From: Candidatus Latescibacterota bacterium
GTDB taxonomy: Bacteria; Latescibacterota; UBA2968
DNA length: 64,000 bases
Direction: 5' to 3'
Assembly (NCBI GenBank): GCA_965116885.1
Contig: OZ220741.1
Coordinates: 2,624,001-2,688,000, forward strand
In this document: positions 11,564 to 52,945 of the stretch, in pieces
How positions within the stretch are numbered: position 1 is the stretch's first letter
How the letters are laid out: each line of letters opens with the position of its first letter
Notes under the pieces: model-generated
What the model was told of the DNA's origin: nothing
The model's input: the letters and a program-made list of their open reading frames with translations, nothing else
The model's database searches: none
Made by a program: the position numbers and the translations under genes

Positions 11564-13042
11564 TCAGTCTCTTGAATATCCGGGGATATTGTAGAGTGGA
11601 ACCGCCCATCCCGCATCCTGAATTAGCAAATTTGCATCCACACTTTTGGGTTCAGCTATCGCGCCAAAGTCTTTCCACTGGTCGCCATCTATAGGTTCGG
11701 TATAGCCTTCGTTTTGGAAAAAGCCTATTAGCTTTTCCCGCATTGTTTTTACCTCGGAGGCGTACAGGATATTGTACGCGCAGTTGCGCGTTTCCTCTGC
11801 ATCCACGCGGTGATCGAGCAGGTATTCCTTTTGGTCGCCGGCTGAATAGATGTATTTCAAGTTGCCGTCATAGGCCATGTACATACCCCGTTGTCCGCGC
11901 TGAATCTGACCGTAAATCATTCGTTCGCGCTCATTGCCCACGAGGTCGGCCATGTCCAGACCGTCTAAATCTGCGTTGTGATTGGAAATGCCTGCTGCGC
12001 CCAAAAATGTGGGGATCAGGTCCATCAATCCACACGGTGTTTCTTCTATAATACCGCGGGGAAAACGCTCGGGATAGCGCACCAGCATGGGGACTCGGGC
12101 CGCTGCATCGAGAAAGCTGCGTTTGCCAAAGCAGTTGTAATCCCCCAATAGTTCTCCGTGATCCGATGACCAGGCAATGAGGGTGTTGTCCAGTTCGCCC
12201 TGTTTTTCGAGTTCGTCAATGATTCGGCCCACGCTGTAGTCGATAAATGATATGCACGCCCAGTAATACCCGCGCATGACTTGCAACATGCGATTGTCCA
12301 ATCCCGCATCGCGGTATTTGTATCGATTCTGATGGCGATTGAAATGCGTCCACAGATCTTCCAGGTCATCGGGGCGTTTGGGAAAGGGCATCAGGGAACC
12401 GCGATAGAGTTTGTTCCAGGGCGTTGGTGGTGAGAAGGGTGGGTGCGGATGGATAAAACTCGACCATAAAAAGAATGGTTTGGATGTATCGCGGTTTTTC
12501 AGAAAGTCAATGCTGCGGTCCGCGACCCAGGCCGTTGGATGGTGGCGTGCGGGAAGTTGAGAAATTTGTGGGATATAATACATTTCTCCTCTCGCGCCCA
12601 TTGGATCGTGTACATAGTCATAGCCGTGTGCATGGAGGTATTTTAGATAATCATTTGCATCAGTTGTTCCCGAGATTTCTTCCTGTACATCTCGTGCGTG
12701 AAATCCCCGCAGTCCGCCACGATCACCGGTAAAGTGCATTTTGCCCACTCCGTGACAGAGGTACCCGCCCTGTGCGAGGAGGTCCATCAGCGATGGGCGA
12801 TCTGTCGGTTGTCGAAATCCATTGTCAAAGCACCCATTTTTGTGCGGATACTGTCCGGTAATAAGGGATGCACGGGCTGATACACAAACGGGTGATGGCG
12901 TGTATCCTTTGGTAAAATTTACTCCTTCATGGCACAACCGATCCATTACTGGCGTGCGGATATGCGGATTGCCAGCCGCGTGAATGGTGTCCCAGCGTTG
13001 CTGGTCGGTAAATGCGAATAGAATATTGGGTTGTTTGGGCAT
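11564..13042 (-). CDS. Sulfatase (Cys-type, choline-sulfatase-like)
   Basis: PNILF..TDQQR, CVSARASLITG, GKMH, SDHG motifs; ATG at 13042 follows GGAG. Confidence 0.9.
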   Translation of the reverse strand: MPKQPNILFAFTDQQRWDTIHAAGNPHIRTPVMDRLCHEGVNFTKGYTPSPVCVSARASLITGQYPHKNGCFDNGFRQPTDRPSLMDLLAQGGYLCHGVGKMHFTGDRGGLRGFHARDVQEEISGTTDANDYLKYLHAHGYDYVHDPMGARGEMYYIPQISQLPARHHPTAWVADRSIDFLKNRDTSKPFFLWSSFIHPHPPFSPPTPWNKLYRGSLMPFPKRPDDLEDLWTHFNRHQNRYKYRDAGLDNRMLQVMRGYYWACISFIDYSVGRIIDELEKQGELDNTLIAWSSDHGELLGDYNCFGKRSFLDAAARVPMLVRYPERFPRGIIEETPCGLMDLIPTFLGAAGISNHNADLDGLDMADLVGNERERMIYGQIQRGQRGMYMAYDGNLKYIYSAGDQKEYLLDHRVDAEETRNCAYNILYASEVKTMREKLIGFFQNEGYTEPIDGDQWKDFGAIAEPKSVDANLLIQDAGWAVPLYNIPGYSRD

Positions 13043-13062
13043 TTTTTTCTCCCTGGAGAATA

Positions 13063-14343
13063 TTAATAATTCGAAGCTTTCATGTAAAAACACAGCCAAA
13101 ATCCCACCAAAACGGTGGTGGCAGATAGGGCAAACACACCTTGAAGATGTACGAGGTCTGCGAGCACGCCTCCAAATATGGGATAGAGCGAACCAATGCC
13201 CAGGACGGTGTTGGTGATGCCGATATAGGTTGGGCGACGCTCTGCTGGCGCGATGTCCAGTAGATAACTTTTGAATCCAATAAAGATGCCCGTTGTCGTT
13301 CCGCCTATTAAGAGAAAAATTGGCGAAAAACACGCCGCGATTATCCACTCAGACGCGTGTTGCAACACGCTCGCCTGGTTGCTTAAGATCAATGCCATAC
13401 ACGGAATTAAAGCCACGCCCAATACGGCGAACAAGACCACGCGGTGGTTTCCGTAATTGAGCGAGAGTCTTCCCCATATTATATTAAAAATAGCTGCGCC
13501 TATGGTTTGTATGGCTAAAAAAAAGCCGACTGTGCTTTCCGAGATGTAAAATGTCTCCTGGGCGAGTACCACGTAAAACGGAAGTGAGAACCCAATGCCC
13601 GATGCCAGCATTTGAACCAGGAGGAACCGTCCAAAGTTGCGGTCGCGGCGCAGTAATTGAGGAATACCGCGAATCACCTGAATGGCATTTCGGTGGGTCG
13701 TGCTCATCTCTCCTTCTGGCTCTCGAACCAGACAGAAACACCCGATGCCCAGGCTCATCATCCCGGCGCCCAGCGCGAAGATCATGACGTAATTTATCGG
13801 AAAGTCATAACCGCTATCTGAGTCGAGAAAATACTTGACCAATATGCCCGCGAGGATGCTCAATATGCCGCCGAGAAATGAACGGGATGCGTAAAATAAT
13901 CCCGTGTGCGACCTCGGCAGAGATCTGCCCACGATATCTGTATAGGCATTGCCCGCGGGGCCTCCAAAAAGAGAAGCGATGCCATATAGAATGAGAAAGC
14001 TGCTCAATACCAGACTGGGGCGCTCGAGTCCGTACCACGCGAGTAGTGGCACGATTGCCCAGATCAGCGACATGCGAATGAGGTTGGCTTGTCTGTACAC
14101 TGGAAGCCGACGCGCACGCCGCTCCAGATATCCCGCCACGAGCAATTGGGGCAAATGCCAACCTGCGCGGTGTAGAGAAGCGGCCAGGCCGACCAGCGTA
14201 TCTGAGGTTGTAAAATGCCGAATAAAAACGGGTAAGACTGTGGTGGGGTCTAAAAATGCTGTGCCAAATGCGAAGATGCCACCATTTAATGTCCCCACAA
14301 TAAAGTTGAACTGCGCATTACCCTTTTCAGGTAAGAATCCCAT
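13063..14343 (-). CDS. MFS transporter
   Basis: About 12 hydrophobic segments over 426 aa; DIAPAERRPTYIG motif. Confidence 0.8.
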   Translation of the reverse strand: MGFLPEKGNAQFNFIVGTLNGGIFAFGTAFLDPTTVLPVFIRHFTTSDTLVGLAASLHRAGWHLPQLLVAGYLERRARRLPVYRQANLIRMSLIWAIVPLLAWYGLERPSLVLSSFLILYGIASLFGGPAGNAYTDIVGRSLPRSHTGLFYASRSFLGGILSILAGILVKYFLDSDSGYDFPINYVMIFALGAGMMSLGIGCFCLVREPEGEMSTTHRNAIQVIRGIPQLLRRDRNFGRFLLVQMLASGIGFSLPFYVVLAQETFYISESTVGFFLAIQTIGAAIFNIIWGRLSLNYGNHRVVLFAVLGVALIPCMALILSNQASVLQHASEWIIAACFSPIFLLIGGTTTGIFIGFKSYLLDIAPAERRPTYIGITNTVLGIGSLYPIFGGVLADLVHLQGVFALSATTVLVGFWLCFYMKASNY

Positions 14344-25104: not shown

Positions 25105-25986
25105 TTATGCGAGGCCGTGCATGCGTTTGGCCGATGTTATGGTGTTGTACAGGAGCATGGTGATGGTCATGGGACCAACGCCGCCCGGGACGGGTGTGAT
25201 GGCGCGCGCTTTTTTGCTGATGGCTGCGTAATCGACGTCGCCAACGAGGCGATAACCCGTTTTTCTGGATTTGTCGGGTACCCGGTTGACGCCTATGTCG
25301 ATTACGACTGTGCCGTTTTGTACCATATCGGCAGTAATGGTGTTGGGGTGCCCTGTCACAACAATGAGGATATTCGCCTGACGGGTGAAGTGGCCGAGGT
25401 CGCGCGTACCGGTATGGCATAAGGTGACGGTGGCATTTGTGGCTTTTTGCGAAAGGATGTTGGCGAGTGGGCGGCCCACCAGGGTGCTGCGCCCCACGAT
25501 GACGACGTGTTTGCCCGCGACTTCAAAGTTGCCGCGTTTGAGGATTTGTTGCACGCCGTGAGGCGTGCAGGGCAAAAAGCCTTCTTCACCGCGCATGAGG
25601 CGGCCGAGGTTGACCGGGTGGAGACCATCTACATCTTTGTCGGGGGATATGCTGTTGAGGGTAGTTTGTTCGTCAAAGCCTTCGGGCAGGGGAAGTTGAA
25701 CGAGGATGCCGTGAATGGTGGGGTCATCGTTGAGTTGTTTAATGGTGTCGAGAAGGTGGGATTCGGGCTGGTCGGCTGTCAGGGTGTGTTCAATAGAGTA
25801 CAGGCCGATGTCTGCACAGGCTTTGCGTTTGCCTTTGATGTAGGATATGGATGCCGGGTCGTCACCGACGAGTACGACCGCGAGGCCAGGGGTGAGGTTG
25901 TGATTTGTTTTGAGGTGCCTGACTTCTTCGGCCATTTCAGCGCGCATGGTTTGGGACAGGTCTGTGCCGTTTATGATTTTTGCCAT
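25105..25986 (-). CDS. folD: Bifunctional methylene-THF dehydrogenase/cyclohydrolase
   Basis: GILVQLPLP, KDVDGLHP, PCTP, GRS..VGRP, TPVPGGVGPMT. Confidence 0.96.
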   Translation of the reverse strand: MAKIINGTDLSQTMRAEMAEEVRHLKTNHNLTPGLAVVLVGDDPASISYIKGKRKACADIGLYSIEHTLTADQPESHLLDTIKQLNDDPTIHGILVQLPLPEGFDEQTTLNSISPDKDVDGLHPVNLGRLMRGEEGFLPCTPHGVQQILKRGNFEVAGKHVVIVGRSTLVGRPLANILSQKATNATVTLCHTGTRDLGHFTRQANILIVVTGHPNTITADMVQNGTVVIDIGVNRVPDKSRKTGYRLVGDVDYAAISKKARAITPVPGGVGPMTITMLLYNTITSAKRMHGLA

Positions 25987-26012: not shown

Positions 26013-26061
26013 AAAATAAAAAGACGCCCGGGCGATGTGATTGTTTTTAGCCCAGGCGGTC
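26013..26061 (-). terminator. Riboswitch expression-platform terminator in the folD leader
   Basis: GACCGCCTGGGC pairs with GCCCGGGCGTC, followed by TTTTTATTTT; 5' arm overlaps aptamer P3. Confidence 0.75.
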
Positions 26062-26125
26062 GGCGTGTGTTTATAGTCCAGTGCTTCCTCGTGGTTATTT
26101 CCACGTTTCCGCCAGTTACACTGGA
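26050..26125 (-). ncRNA. ZMP/ZTP (pfl) riboswitch aptamer
   Basis: Minus strand: TCCAGTG-TAACTGGCGGAAA-CGTGG-AAATAA-CCACG-AGGAAG-CACTGGA, linker, GCCGACCGCCTGGGC (CGCC in L3 complementary to GGCG); upstream of folD; TTGAAT-17-TAAATT promoter just upstream. Confidence 0.9.
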
Positions 26126-26176
26126 GATTTCTGTAAATTTAAGGGATTTGGGCAGATAATTCAAATTTTTTTTGGG

Positions 26177-28658: not shown

Positions 28659-29306
28659 ATGAAAGTGCTGATTTTATCGGGGCCGAACCATCGGTTTGAT
28701 GCAAGTGCCGAGGTTATCCATGGGTTTTTGGGCGCTCAGAACGATTTGTCTGTGGCGCTTGAAGACAATAAGGATGTGCTGACTTCAGACGCTTTGGACG
28801 ATTTTGATGTGCTGGTACACGGTACGGGATTCACGCGTACAGAACGGGATGCAGATGGGACGGTGAATCGCTTGCCTGATTTGGCGCCTGAGCAAGAAGA
28901 GGGACTATTTGATTTTGTGGCGGGTGGCAAAGGTCTGGTGGGCATTCACGGGACGGCATGGTGGATTGGTGGGAGGGCTGTGGATTTGATCGGCGGACAC
29001 GCAAACTGGCATCCGCCGGGATTGACGTTTACCGTCAATATTGCGGATGACGCGCATCCCATTACGCAAGGGGTCGATGATTTTGAAGTGGAAGATGAGA
29101 TTTATATGTCGGCCTGGGATCCCGCTGTTCACATTTTGGCAACCGCGGATTGGAGCGATAAGCAGCATCCCATGGCCTGGGTGAAAGATTATGGCGAAGG
29201 ACGGGTATTTTACACGACTCTGGGACACGGGCCAGGTACATTTGAGCGGGCAGGGATGCAACAACTGGTCACGCAGGGCGTGAGGTGGGCTGGAGGGAAC
29301 TCGTGA
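28659..29306 (+). CDS. ThuA (trehalose utilization)-like glutamine-amidotransferase-fold protein
   Basis: GGKGLVGIH, HPIT, DEIY, PMAW, GRVFYTTLGH; AAGGAGG RBS. Confidence 0.85.
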   Translation: MKVLILSGPNHRFDASAEVIHGFLGAQNDLSVALEDNKDVLTSDALDDFDVLVHGTGFTRTERDADGTVNRLPDLAPEQEEGLFDFVAGGKGLVGIHGTAWWIGGRAVDLIGGHANWHPPGLTFTVNIADDAHPITQGVDDFEVEDEIYMSAWDPAVHILATADWSDKQHPMAWVKDYGEGRVFYTTLGHGPGTFERAGMQQLVTQGVRWAGGNS

Positions 29307-29956
29307 TGCTTAGATTTGCCGAAGAACTCTTGCTTCTGACACTCGACGACGAGAATGGGAGATTTGCTCGCGTGCCAGACCGGTTGATGCGGTACGCGCT
29401 GGCCGGTGGTGTGTTGATGGATTTGGCGCTGGAGAATCGGATTGATACGGATCTCAAAAATCTGATCCTCGTCGATTCGACTCCGCTTGAGGATAGCTTG
29501 CTCGATCCGACGCTCGCGGATATTGCCCAGGCGGACGATACCAGGGATGCGCGCTTTTGGGTGGAGCGCACCGCGCTTCGCGCAGATACGATTCGAGAAG
29601 TGGCACTCAACCGACTCGTAGAACAGGGTATTCTCAAGCGCGAGGAGGACCGGTTCATGTGGGTGTTCCAGGCGCGGCGCTATCCCATTGTTGACAATAC
29701 GGCCGAGCGCGAGGTCAAGCTGAGGATTATGGAGGTGTTGTTCAGCGATCAGATCCCCGGTCCGCGCGATGTCGTGATTATTGGCCTTGCACATGCGTGC
29801 GATATTTTCAAGGAGATTCTGTCCGCACGCGAATTGGCGCGTGTTTCAGACCGCATCGACCAGGTGCGAAAGCTGGATTTGATCGGTCAGGCTATGTCGC
29901 AGGCGATTACAGATATCGAGCTATCACTCGCCCTCGCCGTGCAGATGATGCCGTGA
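29306..29956 (+). CDS. GPP34/GOLPH3-Vps74-family protein
   Basis: LRFAEELLLLTLDD..G, LAGGVLMDLAL..RI pattern; TGATG overlap with the ThuA-like gene. Confidence 0.8.
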   Translation: MLRFAEELLLLTLDDENGRFARVPDRLMRYALAGGVLMDLALENRIDTDLKNLILVDSTPLEDSLLDPTLADIAQADDTRDARFWVERTALRADTIREVALNRLVEQGILKREEDRFMWVFQARRYPIVDNTAEREVKLRIMEVLFSDQIPGPRDVVIIGLAHACDIFKEILSARELARVSDRIDQVRKLDLIGQAMSQAITDIELSLALAVQMMP

Positions 29957-36179: not shown

Positions 36180-37730
36180 ATGTTTTTCAGATGTTCTCGT
36201 TTCGCTTTTCTGATGGGACTGTTTCTGTCCCGTGATGCATTTGCACAGGATGCTTTGGCTGGCGAGTCGTCTGGCGCGATACAGATGGTTATTGACGTAT
36301 TGAATGCAGGCTTAGATGCGATAACCAATTTTCTATCTTCGATTATATTTTTTGATTTTGGCCTGGGTCTTCCACTCGTCATTATTGTGCTCGTAGGTGG
36401 TGGCATTTATTATTCTTTTTATTGTCGCTGGATCTCTCTGCGCGGAATGAAACATTCGATTGATGTGATTCGCGGAGGGTATGACAATCCGGATCATCCC
36501 GGTGAAATTTCGCATTTTAAGGCATTGACCAGTGCGTTGTCTGCCACTGTGGGCCAGGGGAATATCGCGGGTGTAGCGATTGCGGTGAGTTCTGGGGGCC
36601 CTGGTGCTGTTTTCTGGATGATTGTCACAGCTTTTTTTGGTATGGCGTCCAAGTTTGTATCCTGTACTCTGTCGGTGATGTACAGAAGAATCTATCCCGA
36701 TGGGCGCGTGTCGGGTGGTCCGATGTACTATCTGGAACAGGGCTTAAAAGAAAAAGGACTTGGGATTTTGGGGCGCGTGATGGCCGTGATTTTTGCCGTG
36801 TTGACAGTTGGCGGTTCTCTGGGCATCGGCAATATGTTTCAGGTGAATCAGACAGTTGAAATGCTCGGCACTGTATCCGAGGGATTTAAGACCTATAACT
36901 GGGTTGTTGGACTTTTAATGGCAGGGGTGGTGGGCGTTGTCATTAGTGGAGGCATTAAGCGCATTGGCACTGTCACAGCGGGCATTGTACCCTTCATGTG
37001 TGGATTGTACGTGCTCACATCCTTTCTCATTATTCTCGCGCGTATTACCGAATTGCCCAATCTGATTGTGAATATCATTTCCCAGGCGTTTATACCCGAA
37101 GCCATGTATGGTGGCTTCATGGGCGCTCTGGTTCAAGGGGTACGCAGGGCGGCTTTTTCCAACGAAGCGGGGTTGGGGTCTGCGGCATTTGCCCATGCGG
37201 CAGCCAAAACCGATGAACCCGTGCGTCAGGGGATAGTGGCGATGATTGGACCATTTATTGACACCGTTATTATATGTTTAATGACGGCATTGGTTTGTAT
37301 GATTACGGGTGCGTATCTGTTGCCCGAATTTCAAGGGCAAAGTGGATATCTCGTGGGAATCCAGATGACATCTGTGGCATTTGATTCGTTCGCGCCCGGG
37401 TCGCGTTATGTCATCGCAATTGTGGCAATGTTCTTTGCCTATACGACGGTGATCGCGTGGGCATATTACGGCGAGCGAGCGTGGGAATATCTTTTTGGAT
37501 TGCGATCTACTCTGACGTATCGAATTGTTTTTGTGTGTTTTGTATTTATCGGGTCTGTCACCGCGCTAAAGAGCGTGGTCGATTTTTCCGACGCGATGAT
37601 TTTTGCAATGGCGTTTCCGAATATTGTCGGCTGTATTATTATGTGTCCGCAGATCAAAAACAGGCTCAACGAATACTGGGGGCGTTACAAGGCGGGTGAG
37701 ATAAAGGCGTATCCGAGGAACACATATTGA
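36180..37730 (+). CDS. Alanine/glycine:cation symporter (AGCS family)
   Basis: ALSATVGQGNIAGVA, GGPGAVFWM, GGPMYY, FSNEAGLGS, FIDT, YYGER. Confidence 0.93.
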   Translation: MFFRCSRFAFLMGLFLSRDAFAQDALAGESSGAIQMVIDVLNAGLDAITNFLSSIIFFDFGLGLPLVIIVLVGGGIYYSFYCRWISLRGMKHSIDVIRGGYDNPDHPGEISHFKALTSALSATVGQGNIAGVAIAVSSGGPGAVFWMIVTAFFGMASKFVSCTLSVMYRRIYPDGRVSGGPMYYLEQGLKEKGLGILGRVMAVIFAVLTVGGSLGIGNMFQVNQTVEMLGTVSEGFKTYNWVVGLLMAGVVGVVISGGIKRIGTVTAGIVPFMCGLYVLTSFLIILARITELPNLIVNIISQAFIPEAMYGGFMGALVQGVRRAAFSNEAGLGSAAFAHAAAKTDEPVRQGIVAMIGPFIDTVIICLMTALVCMITGAYLLPEFQGQSGYLVGIQMTSVAFDSFAPGSRYVIAIVAMFFAYTTVIAWAYYGERAWEYLFGLRSTLTYRIVFVCFVFIGSVTALKSVVDFSDAMIFAMAFPNIVGCIIMCPQIKNRLNEYWGRYKAGEIKAYPRNTY

Positions 37731-37947: not shown

Positions 37948-38286
37948 ATGGAGATTAAAACCCAAAGAGAAAATGGCATTTTAATCGCGAACGTGAATGG
38001 CCGGGTTGATAGTGCCAATGCCCGCGAGTTCGAAAATGTATTAAGTTCTGCAATCAGTGACGACGATTCCTGCGTGGTCGTAGATTTTGGAGGGCTTTCT
38101 TACATTAGTAGCTCGGGCCTGCGGGTCATTTTGCTGGTTGCCAAGTCACTCCGGAATCGCAATGCGGAATTCGCGCTTTGCTCGCTTTCTGGTCCCATCG
38201 GAGAGGTCTTCAAAATCAGCGGATTTGACAAGATCATTTCGATCTACGACTCACAGGCAGAGGCTTGTGCCGCTCTGGGCGGATAA
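37948..38286 (+). CDS. STAS-domain anti-sigma factor antagonist
   Basis: GRVDS, VDF..LSYISSSGLRV (phospho-Ser motif), VFKISGF. Confidence 0.9.
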   Translation: MEIKTQRENGILIANVNGRVDSANAREFENVLSSAISDDDSCVVVDFGGLSYISSSGLRVILLVAKSLRNRNAEFALCSLSGPIGEVFKISGFDKIISIYDSQAEACAALGG

Positions 38287-38727
38287 TTCGCTCTATCGCA
38301 CAAGCCATAGATGAGAGTTTGGCGTATCTCATCTCACCTGTTGCACAGACCGATTTAGCTCGCCAGGCTTACTGTGTGCTTTCTCCAATCGGATTGCAAG
38401 CGCTATCAGACCCACCAATCCGATTTTCGTGTGTATCTGGTCCATAGATCACTTTCCAGGGTATTTCTCATGCCCCGTATATTCGCTTCCAAAACCTCCC
38501 GAATAACAGCCAACCTTCTACCTGGTGTCGCGCAGTTTGTCATTACAAAATGATCGGTCTGGCATTTATCTACTTTAGTAACTCTCCCCGGAACCCTTTC
38601 CACACAAGTGAGTAAAAAAAATAGGTCCATTAAGCGAGGACTTTTGCTATCGCAACCATTGTGCTCCAATCAAAGAATGCTTAACATCAGTATAAGTAAG
38701 ACACCATTAATCGTAAGAGGCGCATAT

Positions 38728-39897
38728 ATGAAAAAGGCGCAATACAAAATACTCGTAGTTGATGACGAACCCGATCTCGAACATCTCGTGAGGCAGCGCA
38801 TGCGGCGCGATGTTCGCGCTGGGCACTACGAATTCGTCTTTGCTTACAACGGCGTTGAGGCTCTCGAGGTGCTGAACGCGGATCCGGATATCGATATGGT
38901 GCTTTCGGACATCAATATGCCGCGGATGGATGGCCTCACCTTGCTCGAACAGATGCCGCAGGTTGATCCAGACCTCCGGGCTGTCATTGTCTCGGCTTAT
39001 GGCGATATGAAAAATATCCGTACGGCCATGAATCGGGGGGCGTTCGACTTTGTTACCAAGCCCATTGATTTTCAGGATTTGAGGGTCACTATTGAGCGCA
39101 CTTTGGAACACCTGAAGCTGTGGCGCGAGGCTGTGGCTTCGCGGGATAAGTTGGTGGCACTGCAAAACGAGCTTCGCGTTGCCCATGAGATGCAGCAGTC
39201 GATCCTGCCGAAGACCTTTCCCGACAAACCGGGCTATCAGCTATTTGGAAACATGGAGCCTGCACGCGAAGTGGGCGGTGATTTTTTTGATATTATCAAT
39301 CTGGAAAATGACTGTGTCGGTCTGGCAATTGCCGATGTTTCCGATAAGGGTGTACCGGCTGCGCTGTTCATGATGTCCAGTCGCACGTTGATGAAAGGAG
39401 CTGCAATTGGCAGATCGAATCCGGCCGAGGTGTTGAGCGAGGTCAATAGTCTCCTGCAGGAAGACAACGACGCAGCGATGTTTGTCACTGTATTTTACGC
39501 CGAATACAATCCGGAGAATGGGGTGCTGTCTTACGCCAACGGAGGGCACAATCCCCCGATTGTCGTCCATGCAGATGGCAGCTCGACTGTGCTCCCCCAG
39601 ACCAACGGAATTGCTCTGGGTATCATGCCAGATATTAAATACGAACAAAACTCAGTCACTCTGTCGCCTGGCGATGCCCTCGTGCTCTACACAGATGGTG
39701 TCACCGAAGCCATGAATGCCCAGAATGAGGAGTTTGAGATGGAGCGCTTGTGTGCCGTATTGTCCGAGCATTGTTCGTGTGATGTCCGCGAAATTAATCA
39801 GGCGGTTTTTCAAGCTGTGCAGGCATTTGCGGGTGATATGCCCCAGTTCGACGATATGACCTGTATGACACTTTTTTGCAGAGAGATAGGAATATGA
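38728..39897 (+). CDS. Receiver-domain PP2C (SpoIIE/RsbU-type) phosphatase
   Basis: ILVVDD, LSDINMP..DG, FVTKP receiver; MQQSILP, VGGDFFD, IADVSDKG, LYTDG, FDDMT PP2C motifs. Confidence 0.93.
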   Translation: MKKAQYKILVVDDEPDLEHLVRQRMRRDVRAGHYEFVFAYNGVEALEVLNADPDIDMVLSDINMPRMDGLTLLEQMPQVDPDLRAVIVSAYGDMKNIRTAMNRGAFDFVTKPIDFQDLRVTIERTLEHLKLWREAVASRDKLVALQNELRVAHEMQQSILPKTFPDKPGYQLFGNMEPAREVGGDFFDIINLENDCVGLAIADVSDKGVPAALFMMSSRTLMKGAAIGRSNPAEVLSEVNSLLQEDNDAAMFVTVFYAEYNPENGVLSYANGGHNPPIVVHADGSSTVLPQTNGIALGIMPDIKYEQNSVTLSPGDALVLYTDGVTEAMNAQNEEFEMERLCAVLSEHCSCDVREINQAVFQAVQAFAGDMPQFDDMTCMTLFCREIGI

Positions 39898-40316
39898 AGG
39901 TGAAACGTTCTCTATGTATTGCGTCGGATCTCAGCGAGTTGGATCGGCTGCACGATGCCGTGGCAGAACTCGGCGAAGCGGGAGATTGGCCTCCCGATCT
40001 CGTGTACCAGGTTGATCTCGTCCTCGAAGAATTGATCGTCAATACTGTGAACTATGGATACGACGACGATGCACGCCATGAGATTGAGGTCACGCTGACC
40101 TCGGATGAGGATGTCTTCACCGTTGAGATTATAGACGACGGGCATGCCTTCAATCCACTGAGTGACGCCCCCGAACCAGACCTGGACGCGGGGATAGAAG
40201 ATCGGCCGATAGGGGGGCTTGGCATCCATCTGATGCGCGTTATGATGGACGATGTACACTATCGTCGCGAGCAGAATAAGAATCATCTTACTCTGATTAA
40301 GCGGAGGAATGGATGA
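39894..40316 (+). CDS. Anti-sigma factor / Ser kinase (HATPase_c_2, RsbW-like)
   Basis: EELIVNTVNYG, DDGHAFNP, GGLGIHLM; ATGA overlaps at both ends. Confidence 0.9.
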   Translation: MKVKRSLCIASDLSELDRLHDAVAELGEAGDWPPDLVYQVDLVLEELIVNTVNYGYDDDARHEIEVTLTSDEDVFTVEIIDDGHAFNPLSDAPEPDLDAGIEDRPIGGLGIHLMRVMMDDVHYRREQNKNHLTLIKRRNG

Positions 40317-41485
40317 GGACTACGCGCTACAGTTGTGCGGTTTTACTAATCTTCTTGCTGATTGTAGGGATCAGTGCGGAAGAATCCGGAATTTCTGACG
40401 AGCGCATCCTTTTTGGGCAGTCCGCCGCCTTTAGTGGCCCCGCTCAAGAACTGGGTAAGGACATGCGGATTGGTATTGAGGCAGCTTTTCAGGAGGCCAA
40501 CGCGCGGGGCGGCGTGCATGGTCGGCAACTCACGTTGTTGTCTCTCGACGATGCGTACGAACCCGAAGCTGCTATCACCAATACCCGTCGTCTGATTGAA
40601 CAGGAAGGGGTTTTCGCGCTGATCGGTGCTGTCGGTACGCCTACATCGCTCTCTGCCACCCCTGTGGCCGCAGCTGCTGACGTCCCCTATGTCGCCCCCT
40701 TTACCGGTGCTGCCTTCTTGCGTGAAGATAGGTGGCAAAACGTGATTAACCTGCGGGCGTCTTATAACCAGGAAACCGAGGCTATGGTCGCTCGCTTGAC
40801 CACAGACCTGGGCATTAAGCGCATTGCCGTTATGTACCAGGATGACTCTTTTGGTCGGGCGGGTTATCGCGGCGTGCGGCAGGCACTTGAGCGGCGTAGC
40901 ATGGAACCTGTGGCAATAGGGGTGTACCAGCGCAATACCACGGCGGTGAAGACGGGTCTGCTCAACCTGCATAGTGCAAACCCCGATGCAGTCATCCTGA
41001 TAGGGGCCTACCGGCCGGTGGCAACGCTGATTGCCTGGGCGCGACACATAGGGCTGGATCCCGTATTCATGACCATCTCTTTTGTGGGCAGCAATGCATT
41101 GGCCAGGGAACTCGGTCGCGGTGGTGCTGGGGTCTTCGTTACTCAGGTCGTACCCTTTCCAACAGATAACACGCCCCCCGTTGGTATTGCCTATCGCCGT
41201 GCTCTGACGGCCCACGCCCCCGAAGCGACTCCTGGCTTTGTCTCATACGAAGGCTATTTGGCGGGGCGATTGGCTATCGCCGCTCTCGAACGTTGTGGGG
41301 CAGAGGTTAACCGCACCCGGTTTCTCAACAGTTTGCGCGGTGCGGATACTATTGATCTGGACGGCTTTGAACTTCGCTATGGCGCCACTGACAATCAGGG
41401 TTCAGACGCTGTTTTTCTCACCGTGATTGGCACAGAGGGCAGTTATCGCTCGATCCAAACTCTGCGGGACGCAATAAAGCCATGA
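40313..41485 (+). CDS. Periplasmic ligand-binding protein (LivJ/Peripla_BP_6-like)
   Basis: Signal peptide; FGQSAAFSGP, GGVHGR..LDDAYEP, GAVGTP, RASY, YQDDSFG. Confidence 0.88.
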   Translation: MRTTRYSCAVLLIFLLIVGISAEESGISDERILFGQSAAFSGPAQELGKDMRIGIEAAFQEANARGGVHGRQLTLLSLDDAYEPEAAITNTRRLIEQEGVFALIGAVGTPTSLSATPVAAAADVPYVAPFTGAAFLREDRWQNVINLRASYNQETEAMVARLTTDLGIKRIAVMYQDDSFGRAGYRGVRQALERRSMEPVAIGVYQRNTTAVKTGLLNLHSANPDAVILIGAYRPVATLIAWARHIGLDPVFMTISFVGSNALARELGRGGAGVFVTQVVPFPTDNTPPVGIAYRRALTAHAPEATPGFVSYEGYLAGRLAIAALERCGAEVNRTRFLNSLRGADTIDLDGFELRYGATDNQGSDAVFLTVIGTEGSYRSIQTLRDAIKP

Positions 41486-43644
41486 TTGACATACTAAAAC
41501 ACCTGCTTGAAGGCCGCTACCGAATTTCGACGCAACTCTATTTGGGTATTGGCGGTGCTGTTGTCCTCACTATGGGGGCGAGTTTGGTTGGCTGGTTTTC
41601 CTTCAACAGCGTGGGTGACGCGCAAAGTCGCGTGAATGAAGGCAGTGTGCCCGGAATGGCAGCCGCATTTGGAGTCGCTCAACAAAGCGGTGCCATTGTA
41701 GCCGCAGCACCGCGTCTCATCGCTGCTGCAACGCCAGAGACATTTAATCAGGTTATTGCCGAGATCGCCACAGAGCGAAACACTTTTGAAGCGCAGTTGG
41801 CGGCTCTGACGCAGCAAGGTGAAGAAGAGGAACGCTTCAATCGCATTCGCGCCCAGGGTGGCACTCTGATCTCAAATATCGAAGCAATTGAAAGCTCAGT
41901 AGCCGAGCTTTTTGTGCTGCAAGAACAGAGTGAAGCCCTGCGTGCAGAACTGGTTAAAGTGCGCAATGATCTGGTTGGTGTCATGGTTCCGCTTATTGAC
42001 GACCAGTTGTTCTACGCTATGACGGGGTATCGCAATCTCGGCGAAGCACCCGCGCCGCGCAATCAGCACTTGTCGAGACAAGAGTTCGACCACTATCGCC
42101 ATCTGGCTGCATTGCAAGCAGACGCCACCACAGCAATCCAGCTTCTGTCGAGTGCTTTCAATCTTTCAGATGCGCCCTTGATTGAGCCATTGCGGGAGCG
42201 ATTTGAGGCTGCTAAAGACAGGATTGAATGGAGTTTGTCGGCACTCGGAACGGCCCGTGCGCGCAGTCAGATCGCTCCGATATGTGCCCGTCTGTACCAG
42301 TTGGGGCTGGGGGAAGAAGGGGGCTTCGACCTGCGTACACGAGAACTCGAACACGTCGCGCACCAGCGGGACCTGCTCGCACGCAATCAGTCTCTTGCCC
42401 TTAATCTGGTCGCCGAAGCCGAGGGGCTGGTAAATGCTGCCCGCATAAGTGCGAAGGAAGCAACCCACGCTTCCACACTGGCCATCGGCACCGGGCGCAG
42501 TCTTCTGTTGGTTTTGAATGTGATCAGCATTACTGGCGCGTTGTTGATCGCCTATTTATTCGTGGGACGAATGCTATTGCCCCGTCTCGAGCGACTATCC
42601 GAGCGGATGCGCCGCATGGCTGATGGCGACCTGGAGGGCAAGGTCGAGATCGGTGGGAACGACGAGGTGGCAGACATGGCCGCAGCCCTTGAAGTCTTTC
42701 GCCGCCACGCTCTGGAGGTGCAGCGCCTGAATCTGGTGGAAAAACTGGCAGAAGAGTTGCAATCTAAAAACGAAGAGCTCGAAAAGGTGCTGGAGGATTT
42801 GCAGGTGGCGCAGGACCAGATTGTTATGCGCGAGAAATTGGCCGCGCTCGGCGAACTCACTGCAGGTGTGGCGCACGAGATCAAGAATCCGCTGAATTTT
42901 GTGAAAAACTTCTCGGAAGCGTCGGAAGAACTCATGGAGGAGTTGGTGGAGGTACTGGACGAAATTCCCGAGGCGCTGGACGAGGAGCAGCGCGAATTGG
43001 TTGACGAGATATGCCAGGACCTCACCGACAACATGGGGCGCATCCTCCAACACGGCACCCGCGCCGACCGCATTGTTCACGATATGCTCATGATGGGGCG
43101 CGGCTCTGGTGAGCGACTGCCCATTGAAATTAACAATCTGCTCGATGAACACGCCCGCCTTGCCTACCACAGTGCACGGGCCACTGACGCGGATTTTAAC
43201 TTGACTATTGAGACGGATTTCGATCCAGATGCGGGGCAAATTGAGGCCGTGCCGCAGGATCTGGGGCGCGTTTTCCTCAACATGGTAGGCAATGCCTGTT
43301 ACGCTACCGATGAGAAACGTCGTGCTATTGAAGCAGATAATGGTGAGACCTTTTTTCCGACCCTGTCGCTGAGCACCAGGCGCCTGGATGATCGGATAGA
43401 GGTGAGCATAAGAGATAATGGGAATGGGATTCCGCCCGAGGTTGTCGATAAAATTTTCAATCCTTTTTTTACCACCAAACCGACAGACAAGGGAACTGGC
43501 CTCGGCCTTGCTCTTTCCAATGATATTGTGCGCGAACACGGGGGAAATATCCGGGTTGTATCTGAACCTGGTGAATTTACCGAGATGATAGTAGAATTGC
43601 CTTTGGTGCCGTCCGCGGTGACGACTGAAGAGGTAGAGAGATAG
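41482..43644 (+). CDS. Membrane sensor histidine kinase with TorS-like periplasmic domain and HAMP
   Basis: Two TM helices, helical periplasmic domain, HAMP (DEVADMA), H-box AHEIKNP, N/G1/F/G2 boxes (NMVGNA, DNGNG, FNPFFTTK, GTGLGL). Confidence 0.9.
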   Translation: MIDILKHLLEGRYRISTQLYLGIGGAVVLTMGASLVGWFSFNSVGDAQSRVNEGSVPGMAAAFGVAQQSGAIVAAAPRLIAAATPETFNQVIAEIATERNTFEAQLAALTQQGEEEERFNRIRAQGGTLISNIEAIESSVAELFVLQEQSEALRAELVKVRNDLVGVMVPLIDDQLFYAMTGYRNLGEAPAPRNQHLSRQEFDHYRHLAALQADATTAIQLLSSAFNLSDAPLIEPLRERFEAAKDRIEWSLSALGTARARSQIAPICARLYQLGLGEEGGFDLRTRELEHVAHQRDLLARNQSLALNLVAEAEGLVNAARISAKEATHASTLAIGTGRSLLLVLNVISITGALLIAYLFVGRMLLPRLERLSERMRRMADGDLEGKVEIGGNDEVADMAAALEVFRRHALEVQRLNLVEKLAEELQSKNEELEKVLEDLQVAQDQIVMREKLAALGELTAGVAHEIKNPLNFVKNFSEASEELMEELVEVLDEIPEALDEEQRELVDEICQDLTDNMGRILQHGTRADRIVHDMLMMGRGSGERLPIEINNLLDEHARLAYHSARATDADFNLTIETDFDPDAGQIEAVPQDLGRVFLNMVGNACYATDEKRRAIEADNGETFFPTLSLSTRRLDDRIEVSIRDNGNGIPPEVVDKIFNPFFTTKPTDKGTGLGLALSNDIVREHGGNIRVVSEPGEFTEMIVELPLVPSAVTTEEVER

Positions 43645-43688
43645 AAGGGAGTGGAGGCACTGTTCCATCATTATGGGAGGGAATATCC

Positions 43689-45071
43689 ATGCGGACGTTT
43701 TTAAAAACCCTTATTCATCACCGGTTCACCAACCGGGTGGGAAAACCGCTCGCGGTGCTCGGGTTCCTTGCGTGTGCTACAACCGCCGCGCACGCAGCGG
43801 TTGACGAGGAAACCCTGTTCGTCTTCAACACTTTTTCATTTCTCCTTTGGGGCGTGCTGGTGATGTGGATGTGCGCGGGATTTACCATGCTCGAGTCCGG
43901 CTCTGTGCGCACCAAGAATGCCTCTATGATTTGCCTGAAGAATATTGGCCTCTATTCTATTGCCGGGCTTGCTTACTATTTCATCGGCTATAATCTCATG
44001 TACGTCGATGTGGGAAGTGTAATCGGTTCATTTAAGTTTTTATACGGACCATCTGGCGATGAGCTTGCTCTGATAGCGGGAAATGAGGCCGCGAAGACGA
44101 ACGTGATTAAGAGCGGCTATTCCACCATGTCCAATTGGTTTTTCCAGATGGTCTTTGTTGCGACCACTGCTTCTATTGTCTCTGGAACTCTGGCCGAACG
44201 AGTTAAAATGTGGTCCTTTTTTGTTTTTATTCTGGTGCTGACAGCGATTATCTATCCCGTCGTCGGCGCGTGGACATGGGGCGAAGGATGGCTAAGTGCG
44301 ATGGGTTTCAAGGATTTTGCTGGATCGACCATTGTGCATAGCACCGGTGGCTGGGCGGCACTTGCTGGCGCGATAGTCGTTGGACCGAGGCTCGGCAAAT
44401 TCCGCAGCGATGGTACGGTCAAATCCACGCCGCCCTCTAACATTTTGATAGTAACACTGGGCGTCTTCATCCTGTGGTTCGGGTGGTTCGGTTTCAACGG
44501 TGGGTCGCAACTGGCATTGGGAAGCGCGCTTGACGCGGTCGCGATGAGTCATGTGCTGGTCAATACCAATTTGGGAGCTGCAGCCGGTGTTATGGCAGCT
44601 CTTTTAGTTTCTCGTCCCATCCTGGGACGCGTAGATCTGTTCGCAGGTCTGAATGGCGCAATCGCCGGTCTGGTGTCGATTACTGCGGGACCCGATATTG
44701 TCGATCACTACTGGGCGGTCATTATTGGTGCTATTGGCGCGGTTGTGTGTACTGCCGGGATCAAGCTTCTGGAAAAGATCAAGCTGGATGATGTGGTCGG
44801 GGCAATACCCGCTCACCTGTTCGCCGGTATCTGGGGCACCATAGCGGTCTGCATCGCTGGCGGCGGTAACTTAGGCGTACAATTGATCGGTATTGTAGCG
44901 GTTGGCGCATTCGTGTTTGTGACTTCGTGGGTGTTGTGGCGCGTAATTGCTATGACGTTGAGTGTGCGCGTGTCGCGCCAGGTCGAACAATTGGGGCAGG
45001 ATGTTGGGGAATTGGGAATTGACGCCTATCCCGAATTTGTGCTTATGCCGGAAGAAGATGATGAAGAATAA
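43689..45071 (+). CDS. amt: Ammonium transporter (Amt family)
   Basis: GFTMLESG, FFQMVF, DFAGSTIVH, WFGWFGFNGGS, DD..GAIPAH (twin His). Confidence 0.93.
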   Translation: MRTFLKTLIHHRFTNRVGKPLAVLGFLACATTAAHAAVDEETLFVFNTFSFLLWGVLVMWMCAGFTMLESGSVRTKNASMICLKNIGLYSIAGLAYYFIGYNLMYVDVGSVIGSFKFLYGPSGDELALIAGNEAAKTNVIKSGYSTMSNWFFQMVFVATTASIVSGTLAERVKMWSFFVFILVLTAIIYPVVGAWTWGEGWLSAMGFKDFAGSTIVHSTGGWAALAGAIVVGPRLGKFRSDGTVKSTPPSNILIVTLGVFILWFGWFGFNGGSQLALGSALDAVAMSHVLVNTNLGAAAGVMAALLVSRPILGRVDLFAGLNGAIAGLVSITAGPDIVDHYWAVIIGAIGAVVCTAGIKLLEKIKLDDVVGAIPAHLFAGIWGTIAVCIAGGGNLGVQLIGIVAVGAFVFVTSWVLWRVIAMTLSVRVSRQVEQLGQDVGELGIDAYPEFVLMPEEDDEE

Positions 45072-46006
45072 GCAAGGATCTTCTGCATATCTTCTGGTGG
45101 ATGTGCTTCAAACATCATTTCTTTTTTTGTTACGGGATGCACGAATGTCAATTGAGTCGCGTGGAGCATCTGTCGATTAGTTTGCGCGAGCAGGTGGGTT
45201 GCCTCTCTCCGAAACAGGGGGGCAATCCCAGACAGCCGCTCCTCGCGTCCGCCGTATAGCGGGTCGCCAAATACGGGGCGGTTGAGATGCGTTAGATGCA
45301 CTCTGATCTGGTGTGTACGACCCGTCTCCAGCGCGAGAGATAGCAAAGAGAGAAAATCGTAACGCGCCCTTATTTTCCAGCGCGTTGCTGCATATTTTCC
45401 ATTTAGAGAAACGGTCATTCGCTTTCGATCTTTGGGATGCCTTCCAATTGGTGCTTCTATGCGCCCTTCATCTGCTTCAAAGCCCCCCCATATCAACGCG
45501 AGATAACGCCGCTCCATTGCACGGGCTTCCAACTGGGCAGCCAATCCGCGGTGCCCGGCATCACTTTTGGCGACGACCATCAGGCCCGATGTGTCTTTGT
45601 CTAATCGATGTACAATGCCCGGTCGCAAAACCCCGTTGATACCCGATAAATGCGTGCAGTGTGACAGGAGGGCATTGACGAGTGTTCCCGAGGTCACGCT
45701 TCCCGCTGGATGTACAATCATACCCGCAGGTTTGTCGAGCACCAGCACATGGTCATCTTCAAAAAAAATATCCAGAGGAATATCCTCTGGATTAATTGCA
45801 CTATCTGTTGGAGGGGGTATGTTTATTGTGATGCTATCGCCAGCCACCACCCGATAGCTCGATCGGGGCGTCTTTCCCTTGATGAAAACAGCACCCTCGG
45901 CAATCAGTTTTTGAAGGCGTGAACGCGAAAGTTCGGGGCGTTGGTCGGCCAAATAGCGGTCCAGACGCTGGCCTTCATGTTGAGGCAGAATTTTTAGATG
46001 AATCAC
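45026..46006 (-). CDS. rluD: RluD-type 23S rRNA pseudouridine synthase
   Basis: S4-like RLDRYL, KPAGMIVHP, HRLDKDTSG, TGRTHQIRVH; GTG start at 46006 inferred. Confidence 0.88.
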   Translation of the reverse strand: MIHLKILPQHEGQRLDRYLADQRPELSRSRLQKLIAEGAVFIKGKTPRSSYRVVAGDSITINIPPPTDSAINPEDIPLDIFFEDDHVLVLDKPAGMIVHPAGSVTSGTLVNALLSHCTHLSGINGVLRPGIVHRLDKDTSGLMVVAKSDAGHRGLAAQLEARAMERRYLALIWGGFEADEGRIEAPIGRHPKDRKRMTVSLNGKYAATRWKIRARYDFLSLLSLALETGRTHQIRVHLTHLNRPVFGDPLYGGREERLSGIAPLFRREATHLLAQTNRQMLHATQLTFVHPVTKKEMMFEAHPPEDMQKILAYSSSSSSGISTNSG

Positions 46007-46472
46007 GGTTATGCACCGTCTCACGGCGTTTAGATGTGATGCCAAAAGCAAAAATCAAGAGAGCGGTCCCCACACTGACACAGGTATCCGCGAGGTTAAA
46101 AACCCACCACCGCGCAGTTCCAATGCCAAAATCGAGAAAATCAATTACGACGCCAAATCGCACGCGGTCGATGATATTGCCAATTGCACCTCCCAACACC
46201 AGAGTCAAACCAATGGCTGCGAGGCGGTCTTCGGGAGGGATACGCCACAGCAACCCACCAACCACGATAAGTGCCACACAAGCCAGTAGTAGATGCAGGT
46301 AAGGGTTGCCCAATCGGATGCCGAATACTGCACCTGGATTGTGAATATAGGTCAGCTTAAAAAAAGATCCCAGTACCGGTACAGATTCGCCCAGGGTCAT
46401 GGTTTGCAACACCCACCATTTTGTAAATTGGTCCAGCACCAATGCCACACCTGTAATCCACAAGAATCTCAC
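45975..46472 (-). CDS. lspA: Lipoprotein signal peptidase II
   Basis: DQFTK, NPGAVFG, GGAIGNIIDR, VIDF, FNLAD. Confidence 0.95.
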   Translation of the reverse strand: MRFLWITGVALVLDQFTKWWVLQTMTLGESVPVLGSFFKLTYIHNPGAVFGIRLGNPYLHLLLACVALIVVGGLLWRIPPEDRLAAIGLTLVLGGAIGNIIDRVRFGVVIDFLDFGIGTARWWVFNLADTCVSVGTALLIFAFGITSKRRETVHNRDSSKNSAST

Positions 46473-52186: not shown

Positions 52187-52945
52187 TTATCCTTCCAGCC
52201 GCTCGCGCAGGTGGGCTTCCATGGCCACAAATTGGGGGTCGGCGCGCAAGGTGTTTTCCCGGGGATGGGGAAAATGAACGCTCAGGTCTTCCGCGATTTT
52301 ACCGGGTCTGGCAGACATGACCACAACGCGGTCGGAGAGGAGTAATGCTTCAGAGATGCTGTGGGTTATAAATAAGACAGCAGCACCGGTTGCCTGCCAT
52401 ATTCGCAACAGTTCAATTTGCATCTTTTCTCGCGTCATTTCATCCAATGCGCCAAAAGGCTCGTCCATGAGCAAAACGGATGGGCGGAAGGTCAAGACTC
52501 TGGCTATGGCGACCCGCGATTGCATGCCGCCCGATAGTTCGCGCGGATACGCCTGCTCAAATCCAGCCAGTCCGACAATGTCGATCATCTCAGAGACCCG
52601 GCTTAAAATCTCTGCGTCTCCAAAGACCTCTGCGGGCAGGCGCACATTTTCCTCTACCGTGCGCCAGGCGAGAAGCGAGGGATGTTGAAATACAAAGCCC
52701 ACCAATCGTTCGCGCCGCGCGACTTCGGGTATTTTCCCCAGTACGCGAACGGTGCCATTCGTCGGTGTTTCCAAATCGCCGACAATCCGCATTAAGCTCG
52801 TTTTGCCACATCCCGAGGGTCCGATCATACTGACAAATTCACCCTGCGCTATCTGTAGGGAAATTTGTGCGAGTGCCTCTACCCGGTTGCTGTCGGTCAC
52901 AAAAACCTTGTGAATATCTCGCAGTTCAATGGCTAATTCGTTCAT
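52187..52945 (-). CDS. ABC transporter ATP-binding protein (nitrate/sulfonate/taurine type)
   Basis: GPSGCGKT, LSGGMQSR, LLMDEPFGALD, FITH, MSARPG. Confidence 0.92.
   Translation of the reverse strand: MNELAIELRDIHKVFVTDSNRVEALAQISLQIAQGEFVSMIGPSGCGKTSLMRIVGDLETPTNGTVRVLGKIPEVARRERLVGFVFQHPSLLAWRTVEENVRLPAEVFGDAEILSRVSEMIDIVGLAGFEQAYPRELSGGMQSRVAIARVLTFRPSVLLMDEPFGALDEMTREKMQIELLRIWQATGAAVLFITHSISEALLLSDRVVVMSARPGKIAEDLSVHFPHPRENTLRADPQFVAMEAHLRERLEG

Follow-up and report, generated by a model that had tools for sequence, protein, structure and literature searches.

A five-gene signaling module was analyzed in a 64,000-nucleotide stretch of DNA from a Candidatus Latescibacterota bacterium (contig OZ220741.1, positions 2,624,001 to 2,688,000; hereafter the window). 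The genes encode a STAS-domain protein, a receiver joined to a Ser/Thr phosphatase (REC-PP2C), an RsbW-like serine kinase, a periplasmic binding protein, and a membrane histidine kinase with a TorS-like sensor, and they are followed by an ammonium transporter gene (amt). With moderate confidence, the module is read as a self-contained and horizontally mobile unit, in which a signal would pass from the binding protein to the histidine kinase and through a partner switch to nitrogen acquisition. The five-gene arrangement is not a product of chance, since it recurs in 80 related loci that carry the labels of 7 phyla.

Seven consecutive genes lie on the + strand of the window, from an AGCS symporter to amt. 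The features of the locus, with lengths in nucleotides (nt) or amino acids (aa) and E values from Pfam, are the following.

36180-37730, + strand: AGCS-family symporter, the gene upstream of the STAS gene.
37948-38286, + strand: STAS-domain protein of the anti-sigma-factor-antagonist type, 112 aa (PF01740, 5.9e-21), the presumed phosphorylated output switch.
38287-38727, no strand: spacer of 441 nt between the STAS and REC-PP2C genes, with no feature identified.
38728-39897, + strand: REC-PP2C, a receiver with a SpoIIE-type Ser/Thr phosphatase, 389 aa (Response_reg, 7.1e-25; SpoIIE, 8.8e-55).
39894-40316, + strand: RsbW/SpoIIAB-like serine kinase of the GHKL type, 140 aa (HATPase_c_2, 2e-29).
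40313-41485, + strand: periplasmic binding protein of the LivJ fold with an N-terminal signal-like segment, 390 aa (Peripla_BP_6, 1.1e-60), the presumed co-receptor.
41482-43644, + strand: membrane histidine kinase, 720 aa (TorS_sensor_domain, HAMP, HisKA, HATPase_c).
43689-45071, + strand: ammonium transporter Amt of the "marine subtype", 460 aa (Ammonium_transp, 7.9e-97).
45026-46051, − strand: RluD-like gene, convergent with amt.

As the original prediction had it, the six genes from STAS to amt occupy these positions on the + strand, with three ATGA overlaps (REC-PP2C/RsbW-like kinase, RsbW-like kinase/binding protein, and binding protein/histidine kinase) and a gap of 44 nt between the histidine kinase gene and amt, all read from the sequence. 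Its order of STAS before REC-PP2C was also right, but the 441-nt spacer between them had gone unmentioned. The longest open reading frame (ORF) of REC-PP2C begins at GTG 38608; ATG 38728 was taken as the start because AAGAGG sits just 5′ of it. The 3′ ends of amt and of the RluD-like gene overlap by 46 nt (45026-45071) in longest-ORF calls, and a similar overlap is found in locus L002.

No Rfam family reached its gathering score in the spacer or anywhere else in the module. Promoter and terminator scans of the spacer were at chance level, as were scans for sigma-70-type promoters, terminators, and the sigma-54 consensus in general. An 87-aa ORF on the − strand of the spacer has no match in Pfam. 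The length of this interval varies among the related loci, and in eight of them a Na+/H+ exchanger-CBS gene sits between the STAS and REC-PP2C genes (L012-L015, L017, L018, L020, and L024, at about 5240-7160; tblastn, and for L012 also Pfam).

The Pfam scan of the whole window covered the 63 greedy ORF calls of at least 80 aa, and among these were found no LivH/M-type permease, P-II protein, sigma-70 gene, or DNA-binding response regulator. The sole ATP-binding cassette (ABC) ATPase of the window (52187-52945) is on the opposite strand and 7 kilobases (kb) away. The E. coli GlnK and RpoH queries gave no tblastn match in the window. These results bear out the statement that the binding protein has no ABC permease or ATPase here and that no DNA-binding regulator, sigma factor, or glnK is encoded in the window.

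The related loci were collected from one genome per species, which gave at least 599 pattern matches and at least 562 loci confirmed by tblastn. All locus counts refer to the best 80 of these at least 562 confirmed loci, which were kept with 10-kb flanks and are all from metagenome-assembled genomes. The small alignment A2 was used for the search; the 18-sequence alignment A1 was too divergent. Gene presence was scored by tblastn with the window proteins at a coverage of at least 50% and identity floors of 40-65%. Greedy ORF calls mis-call strands in GC-rich loci, and for 11 loci Pfam was run on 75 of the 85 ORFs listed. The labels are Latescibacterota (27 loci), Chloroflexota (27), Pseudomonadota (15), Acidobacteriota (3), Verrucomicrobiota (3), Spirochaetota (2), and Gemmatimonadota (1), and two loci are unlabeled. 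The nearest public relatives are labeled Candidatus Latescibacterota or Gemmatimonadota.

The binding-protein gene is directly upstream of the kinase gene in 80/80 loci, with 64-95% identity to the window for the binding protein and 60-96% for the kinase. REC-PP2C was found in 76/80 loci (64-96% identity), and three of the four misses are truncated loci. The RsbW-like kinase was found in 72/80 (43-97%) and STAS in 69/80 (48-99%), the latter 54 times upstream on the same strand and 15 times downstream on the other strand. The original prediction had treated six genes as one neighborhood; the five genes of the module are kept at these frequencies, and a close Amt is present in 41/80 loci. The AGCS symporter, which had been suggested as a further part of the system, was rejected as a member since it is kept in only 3/80 loci. 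The RluD-like gene is present in 9/80.

The five-gene block is 56-96% identical between the window and loci labeled as 7 phyla, which is unusually high for a comparison between phyla. On a FastTree tree of the binding protein and kinase (local supports only), the Latescibacterota label requires six changes. Because of this high identity and the six places of the label in the tree, the data suggest that the whole block spread horizontally and recently, or that some of the loci are mis-binned.

The proteins of the putative partner switch were characterized by their conserved residues. The STAS protein scores 79.2 bits with TIGR00377 against a cut-off of 53.45, and Ser54 and Ser55 of its Y-I-S-S-x-G-L-R motif are invariant in 70/70 orthologues. 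We take Ser55 to be the equivalent of the phospho-serine of SpoIIAA and RsbV. The residues D12, D13, D61, and K111 of the receiver and D185, D203, D323, D375, and D376 of the PP2C domain are invariant in 76/76 REC-PP2C sequences. Across 73 sequences, the RsbW-like kinase keeps N50, D81, and G107-G110 of its N, G1, and G2 boxes with little or no variation. The catalytic and phospho-acceptor residues that were checked thus appear intact, being invariant or nearly so in the orthologues.

The receivers near the module were located by tblastn with TorR and an NtrC-like protein as queries. These queries match one place per locus within 10 kb, the receiver of REC-PP2C. The TorR query matches this receiver only, in the window and in 65 loci, and its DNA-binding half, like the AAA+ half of the other query, was never matched. 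No receiver other than that of REC-PP2C was detected within 10 kb. A distant relative, P0178 (700 aa), has a TorS_sensor domain, HAMP, and SpoIIE in one chain, a fusion in which the kinase-receiver step is skipped. Its sensor is 34% identical to that of the window kinase, and its PP2C domain is 39% identical to that of REC-PP2C (E 1e-55). Signaling from the kinase to the receiver of REC-PP2C, as originally proposed, is supported by these comparisons, and the exclusive co-occurrence together with the sensor-PP2C fusion points to direct phosphotransfer. Additional copies of the switch proteins are present in some loci: a second REC-PP2C, RsbW, and 53%-identical kinase lie downstream in L060 (13311-17254), and a second STAS/REC-PP2C/RsbW set lies upstream in L011 (2967-5158) and L019 (2887-5070).

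The output of the switch could also be that of a classical anti-sigma system, in which the RsbW-like protein holds a sigma factor encoded elsewhere, the module turns a regulon on or off, and amt is a neighbor or a member of that regulon rather than a direct target. This alternative is tentative and rather less than probable. Kinases of the RsbW/SpoIIAB type are anti-sigma factors in RsfSR/SigF, according to the available text of PMC10950880, and likewise in what is available on RsbKY/SigB. The STAS protein is above the cut-off of the anti-sigma-antagonist superfamily model, and 25/80 loci have neither an Amt nor an ATP-grasp cluster nearby. Against this, tblastn with RpoH detected no alternative sigma gene within 10 kb in the 80 loci or in the window, a query that extracytoplasmic function (ECF) sigma factors could escape. 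The identity of the module across 7 phyla is hard to square with dependence on a lineage-specific sigma factor, and the RsbW equivalog models are far under their cut-offs, with 40 bits against 145 for the RsbW model on the RsbW-like kinase.

A sigma factor adjoining the module was considered and rejected, since the single match is a full-length housekeeping RpoD. This rpoD gene lies in L052, the only gammaproteobacterial locus (5298-7169, + strand; 832 bits against a cut-off of 555), and ends one base before the start codon of REC-PP2C. Its position may be an accident of the insertion site.

An output on nitrogen acquisition, as in the favored reading, was evaluated from the genes beside the module. 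The Amt of the window scores 510.1 bits with TIGR03644 ("marine subtype") against a cut-off of 514 and is far above the cut-off of Pfam Ammonium_transp. Close homologues (71-95% identity, floor 65%) lie within 10 kb in 41/80 loci, and any Amt, including an AmtB-like type of about 30% identity, in 49/80. The amt gene follows the kinase gene within 300 nt in 10 loci. It precedes the STAS gene on the same strand, at gaps of 45-72 nt, in nine loci, and the order amtB-glnK-STAS is found in seven. Together, amt or amtB-glnK is directly upstream of STAS in 16 loci. In a fourth arrangement, amt is inside a CP_ATPgrasp/amt/Alpha-E/transglutaminase cluster adjoining the module.

The CP_ATPgrasp/Alpha-E/transglutaminase cluster is of the Anbu-operon type and occurs, with or without amt, in 27/80 loci (L013-L018, L020, L023-L025, L030, L034, L040, L045-L048, L050, L051, L054, L056, L057, L063, L069, L071, L073, and L076). 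It is 58-85% identical across phyla, and its ATP-grasp and Alpha-E genes often have the marine-type amt between them. The cluster is absent from the window itself. The available text of PMC5666114 gives no known function for the ATP-grasp/Alpha-E/transglutaminase/Anbu operon and describes Anbu as up-regulated in nitrogen-limited Pseudomonas putida. Either an Amt or the ATP-grasp cluster is within 10 kb in 55/80 loci. The presence of Amt requires at least 11 changes on the FastTree tree. GlnK was found by tblastn in nine loci and never beside the marine-type Amt, either in the window or in the 41 loci that carry this type.

In the genome of the window, amt is predicted to be co-transcribed cargo, because the gap to the kinase gene is 44 nt and no terminator is predicted. 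Overall, amt is viewed as associated cargo or as a possible target and not as a core part of the module. A link to nitrogen uptake, which the original prediction had raised as a possible coupling, is supported by the frequency of Amt within 10 kb and by the 16 loci with amt or amtB-glnK upstream of STAS.

It is quite improbable that the association with Amt reflects hitch-hiking or shared nitrogen-regulated expression without functional coupling and that the signal of the module is unrelated to nitrogen. The absence of any Amt within 10 kb in 31/80 loci is consistent with this alternative, as is the diversity of the other neighbors, which include sulfatases, ThiC, and glycosyltransferases. It is opposed by the recurrence, in four arrangements and in five of the seven labeled phyla, of two Amt subfamilies, glnK, GlnE (3 loci), and the ATP-grasp cluster. 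A chance amt in a 20-kb span should also be rare, with few amt genes per genome, by a rough estimate rather than a computed value.

The input half of the module was characterized beginning with the histidine kinase. The order of its segments is a first transmembrane segment (TM1), a periplasmic double helical bundle (about residues 42-336), a second transmembrane segment (TM2), HAMP, HisKA, and HATPase_c. The chain stops after HATPase_c, and no REC or Hpt was found in it by Pfam. Pfam PF21689 (TorS_sensor_domain) matches with 30.7 bits against a gathering score of 27. In the NCBIfam model for TorS, TIGR02956, kinase residues 19-438 align to positions 6-430 of 967, with a total of 160 bits that is far under the cut-off of 676.5. 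When a kinase profile of 74 relatives was compared with E. coli TorS by hhalign, the two were colinear from TM1 to the ATPase domain at a probability of 99.9. For the periplasmic part only, the probability is 80.6 with an E value of 1.3e-5 over 276 columns.

The AlphaFold2 model of residues 42-336 is all-helical, with a predicted local distance difference test (pLDDT) score of 91.7 and a predicted template-modeling (pTM) score of 0.83. The best Foldseek matches in the PDB are TorS sensor entries (3o1i, 3o1j, 3o1h, 3i9y, and 3i9w), which make up six of the first seven chains. The TM-scores of the four best TorS chains are 0.73-0.77 by query and 0.80-0.84 by target; the values (query/target) are 0.65/0.81 for 3i9y and 0.59/0.63 for 3i9w. 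The bundles of PilJ and McpS rank after the TorS entries at much lower TM-scores. Pfam, the profile comparison, and the fold all show the periplasmic domain of the window kinase to be TorS-like, in agreement with the resemblance originally noted for the N-terminus. The kinase is not a TorS orthologue, because REC and Hpt are missing.

The sensor family is large, with 2137 representatives at E ≤ 1e-3 and 183 at E ≤ 1e-30 in clusters of 50% identity. Apart from the PP2C fusion described above, distant sensor relatives end in chemoreceptor, cyclase, PAS-kinase, or hybrid-kinase modules.

The binding protein has the LivJ-type Peripla_BP_6 fold and is without LivHMGF-type permease or ATPase neighbors in the window. 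It aligns to E. coli LivJ at a probability of 97.6. The closest solved structure is 4kv7 (E 1.7e-69, 38% identity). The AlphaFold2 model (pLDDT 90.3) gives Foldseek TM-scores of 0.88 to 4kv7 and 0.80-0.85 to many structures of the LivJ family. There is no profile similarity to TorT (probability 0.3), and on this comparison the binding protein is neither TorT nor a relative of TorT. A full TorS/TorT identity of the pair is therefore not upheld. Since the sensor is TorS-like, yet the kinase has no REC or Hpt and its partner is not TorT, the input half would work like TorT-TorS outside that family.

The pairing of the binding-protein gene with the kinase gene is close, with a gap of at most 60 nt in 78 of the 80 loci and of 219 nt in the other two. 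The binding protein is also the most conserved protein of the module (median identity 73%). No ABC permease or ATPase adjoins its gene in the window or in the 80 loci. Matches that resemble ABC ATPases occur in 25/80 loci, never adjacent. The one closest to the gene is in L027; it lies on the opposite strand and is part of a transporter that has an SBP_bac_8 protein of its own.

A tblastn search of plasmids with the binding protein returned 199 records. The closest are from three cultured alphaproteobacteria: Terrarubrum flagellatum (55% identity), Ruegeria sp. TM1040 (53%), and Phaeobacter (58 records, 49%), with Phaeobacter inhibens taken as the third context. In each, the homologous gene is followed directly by a chemoreceptor gene, and no permease was found beside it in the 3/3 contexts examined. 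The sensors of these chemoreceptors are TorS-like or related. The Terrarubrum chemoreceptor carries the Pfam TorS_sensor_domain and HAMP and is 29% identical to the N-terminal 420 residues of the window kinase. The sensor of the Phaeobacter inhibens chemoreceptor matches the profile at a probability of 90. In Chelatococcus and Azospirillum, genes for SBP_bac_6/1/8-type binding proteins lie directly ahead of distant TorS-like kinase genes and overlap them by 4 nt, and sigma-54-dependent regulators are encoded downstream. Because binding proteins of differing families precede such sensors, the TorS-type bundle appears to be a general docking module for them.

The role of the binding protein as a dedicated signaling partner of the kinase, or co-receptor in the original prediction, is supported by the constant adjacency of the two genes, the lack of ABC neighbors, and the chemoreceptor contexts. 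It is highly improbable that it is instead an ordinary transport protein with an ABC permease encoded elsewhere, the kinase sensing something else by its own periplasmic domain: the protein is a Peripla_BP_6 member that public records name "ABC transporter substrate-binding protein", and TorS-like or HBM-type chemoreceptor bundles can bind ligand directly (McpS, with malate and succinate, is among the fold matches), but its gene adjoins the kinase gene, often overlapping it, in every locus with no ABC genes beside it, the cultured homologues stand beside chemoreceptor genes and not permeases, and the available text of a review places the binding-protein genes that serve sensor kinases among signaling genes (PMC8050422).

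In alphaproteobacterial loci without RsbW and/or STAS, a second Peripla_BP_6 gene lies just 3′ of the kinase gene (L022, L029, L031, L032, and L035, at about 12250-13580; L021, L043, and L044). Its products are 35% identical to the binding protein of the window and 77-100% identical among themselves.

The ligand pocket was compared with that of LivJ. The positions that match Y18, S79, Y150, Y202, and E226 of mature LivJ are L, T, F, Y, and S, and they are invariant in 45 sequences. These LivJ residues are presumed to contact the ligand, and Glu226 presumably holds its alpha-ammonium group. Most of the aligned residues are common to 4kv7, which has Tyr at the F158 position, and not to 3lop. The PDB neighbors of the binding protein bind branched-chain amino acids, 2-oxo acids, aromatic acids, pyroglutamate, a fatty acid, urea, and amides. 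Ligand inference from these neighbors was tried and gave no candidate. The compounds are very different, and the title of 4kv7 names no ligand. A literature search on 4KV7, 3LOP, and 4M88 returned nothing relevant, and the available main text of the review PMC10443332 does not mention them. Nothing in these comparisons shows the amine or amino-acid ligand that had been proposed as the signal.

The favored mechanism can be described in five steps. The secreted LivJ-fold protein would bind a small molecule and then dock on the TorS-like bundle of the kinase, in the manner of TorT and TorS. The signal would then pass through HAMP and set the autokinase/phosphatase balance of the HisKA/HATPase core, as the domain order suggests. 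The kinase would phosphorylate Asp61 of REC-PP2C directly, without an Hpt or a second receiver. Phosphorylation of the receiver would alter the PP2C activity on the phospho-serine of STAS, and the RsbW-like kinase would re-phosphorylate this serine; unphosphorylated STAS would capture RsbW in a partner switch, by homology with RsfSR and RsbKY. In the last and least certain step, the output would reach nitrogen acquisition either by a regulator encoded elsewhere or by way of the neighboring Amt or nitrogen-assimilation proteins. The conventional guess is a sigma factor encoded elsewhere, and it would be bolder to propose that the switch acts directly on Amt or nitrogen-assimilation proteins.

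In the boldest form of this last step, the STAS/RsbW switch would act directly on the ammonium channel as a GlnK-independent gate of the marine-type Amt driven by an extracellular signal. Such gating is unlikely, and the amt-STAS, amtB-glnK-STAS, and kinase-amt orders counted above are the arrangements expected of such a pairing. If it is correct, an external signal received by the binding protein would be coupled to ammonium influx within seconds and without transcription.

Several observations weigh against the favored mechanism. Neither an Amt nor the ATP-grasp cluster is within 10 kb in 25/80 loci, which include 10 of the 15 Pseudomonadota and both Spirochaetota. Twelve loci are short of one or more of REC-PP2C, RsbW, and STAS; eight full-length ones among them are without RsbW and/or STAS within 10 kb (six without both), and therefore sensor and switch are not encoded together in every locus. 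Common descent or transfer links the loci, and their counts are not independent events. The likeness of the sensor to TorS is modest by sequence alone; the phmmer search against PDB chains matched kinase cores and no TorS, so the fold comparison was needed. Finally, an amino-acid ligand is not assured, because an invariant Ser of the binding protein is aligned with Glu226 of LivJ; if Glu226 holds the alpha-ammonium group in LivJ, a standard amino-acid binding mode is doubtful.

The module was compared with characterized systems. It shares with TorT-TorS of E. coli and Vibrio parahaemolyticus (3o1h, 3o1i, and 3o1j) a binding-protein gene beside the kinase gene, a periplasmic double four-helix bundle, TM2, and HAMP. 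TorS differs in being a hybrid kinase, for which the same Pfam scan shows Response_reg and Hpt, and in signaling to the DNA-binding TorR; the window kinase has neither of these two domains. TorT is a Peripla_BP_1 protein and the window binding protein is a Peripla_BP_6 protein. By tblastn with TorR, no OmpR-type TorR was found near the module, and no torCAD-like target is present.

Analogues of the downstream wiring are already characterized. In M. smegmatis, phosphorylation of the REC-PP2C protein RsfR by the histidine kinase RsfS makes RsfR less active on the STAS protein RsfB, according to the available text of PMC10950880. The RsfS-RsfR-RsfB-RsbW1-SigF system and RsbK-RsbY-RsbV-RsbW-SigB of B. 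cereus resemble the window in having a histidine kinase, a REC-PP2C, and a STAS protein opposed by an RsbW kinase. Their inputs differ: that of RsfS is CHASE3, RsbK is a hybrid kinase, and the available descriptions of the two give neither a binding-protein partner. Both also end on a known sigma factor, whereas none is encoded in the window and no alternative sigma gene was found near the 80 relatives. The HptB-HsbR-HsbA system of Pseudomonas, as far as its available description goes, shares a regulator of the receiver-PP2C type and a STAS antagonist with no sigma gene in the cluster. In HsbR the kinase domain is part of the same chain, and the input comes by way of an Hpt protein; the window has instead a separate kinase of 140 aa and no Hpt.

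On the input side, Table 1 of PMC8050422, in the text available, lists BasB of Halobacterium salinarum as a Peripla_BP_6 protein that serves the transducer BasT. The signaling role of this protein family is shared with the window, and BasT differs in being a chemoreceptor, whose domain is dCache-like, and not a TorS-like kinase. AmtB-GlnK (E. coli locus L085) offers a further likeness, as a small regulator gene stands beside amt there and amt precedes STAS in related loci. GlnK is a P-II protein, while STAS is unrelated in fold and under serine-phosphorylation control. STAS is not simply a substitute for GlnK, since glnK and STAS both follow an AmtB-like gene in seven loci.

The binding-protein input with the link to Amt appears to be the new part. 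No description of binding-protein input, partner switch, and Amt link in combination was found in the literature, with subscription journals mostly outside the search. The original statement that no characterized system has this wiring holds for the whole combination and not for the path from histidine kinase through REC-PP2C to STAS/RsbW, which the available descriptions report for RsfSR and RsbKY.

Two other features of the window lie upstream of the module. A ZMP/ZTP riboswitch (RF01750) is at 26043-26129 on the − strand (61.7 bits against a gathering score of 39), directly 5′ of a folD-like gene (25105-25986, − strand) with tetrahydrofolate dehydrogenase/cyclohydrolase domains. A bacterial homologue of the GPP34 (Golgi phosphoprotein 3) family is encoded at 29285-29956 on the + strand (E 2e-45), 8 kb upstream of the module. 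A GPP34 homologue is also directly upstream of STAS in the Dehalococcoidia locus L048 (5077-5733, − strand).

Few sensor kinases are known to depend on a binding protein, and the pair of a Peripla_BP_6 protein and a TorS-like kinase described here would be a further case. The TorS-type bundle would be a general docking platform: binding proteins from three or more families precede sensors of this type, whose outputs are kinases, chemoreceptors, a cyclase, and a PP2C phosphatase. A partner-switching cascade that has no sigma factor and moves between phyla as a unit raises the question of what such switches control. Its repeated siting by Amt, glnK, and the ATP-grasp cluster is a lead on the regulation of the widespread marine-type Amt, which has no GlnK partner in these loci. 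The input half is accessible in cultures through the homologues of Phaeobacter inhibens DSM 17395 and Ruegeria sp. TM1040, together with the structure 4kv7. Standing beside ammonium-transporter genes in many uncultured bacteria, the five-gene module may adjust nitrogen uptake by an unexplored route.

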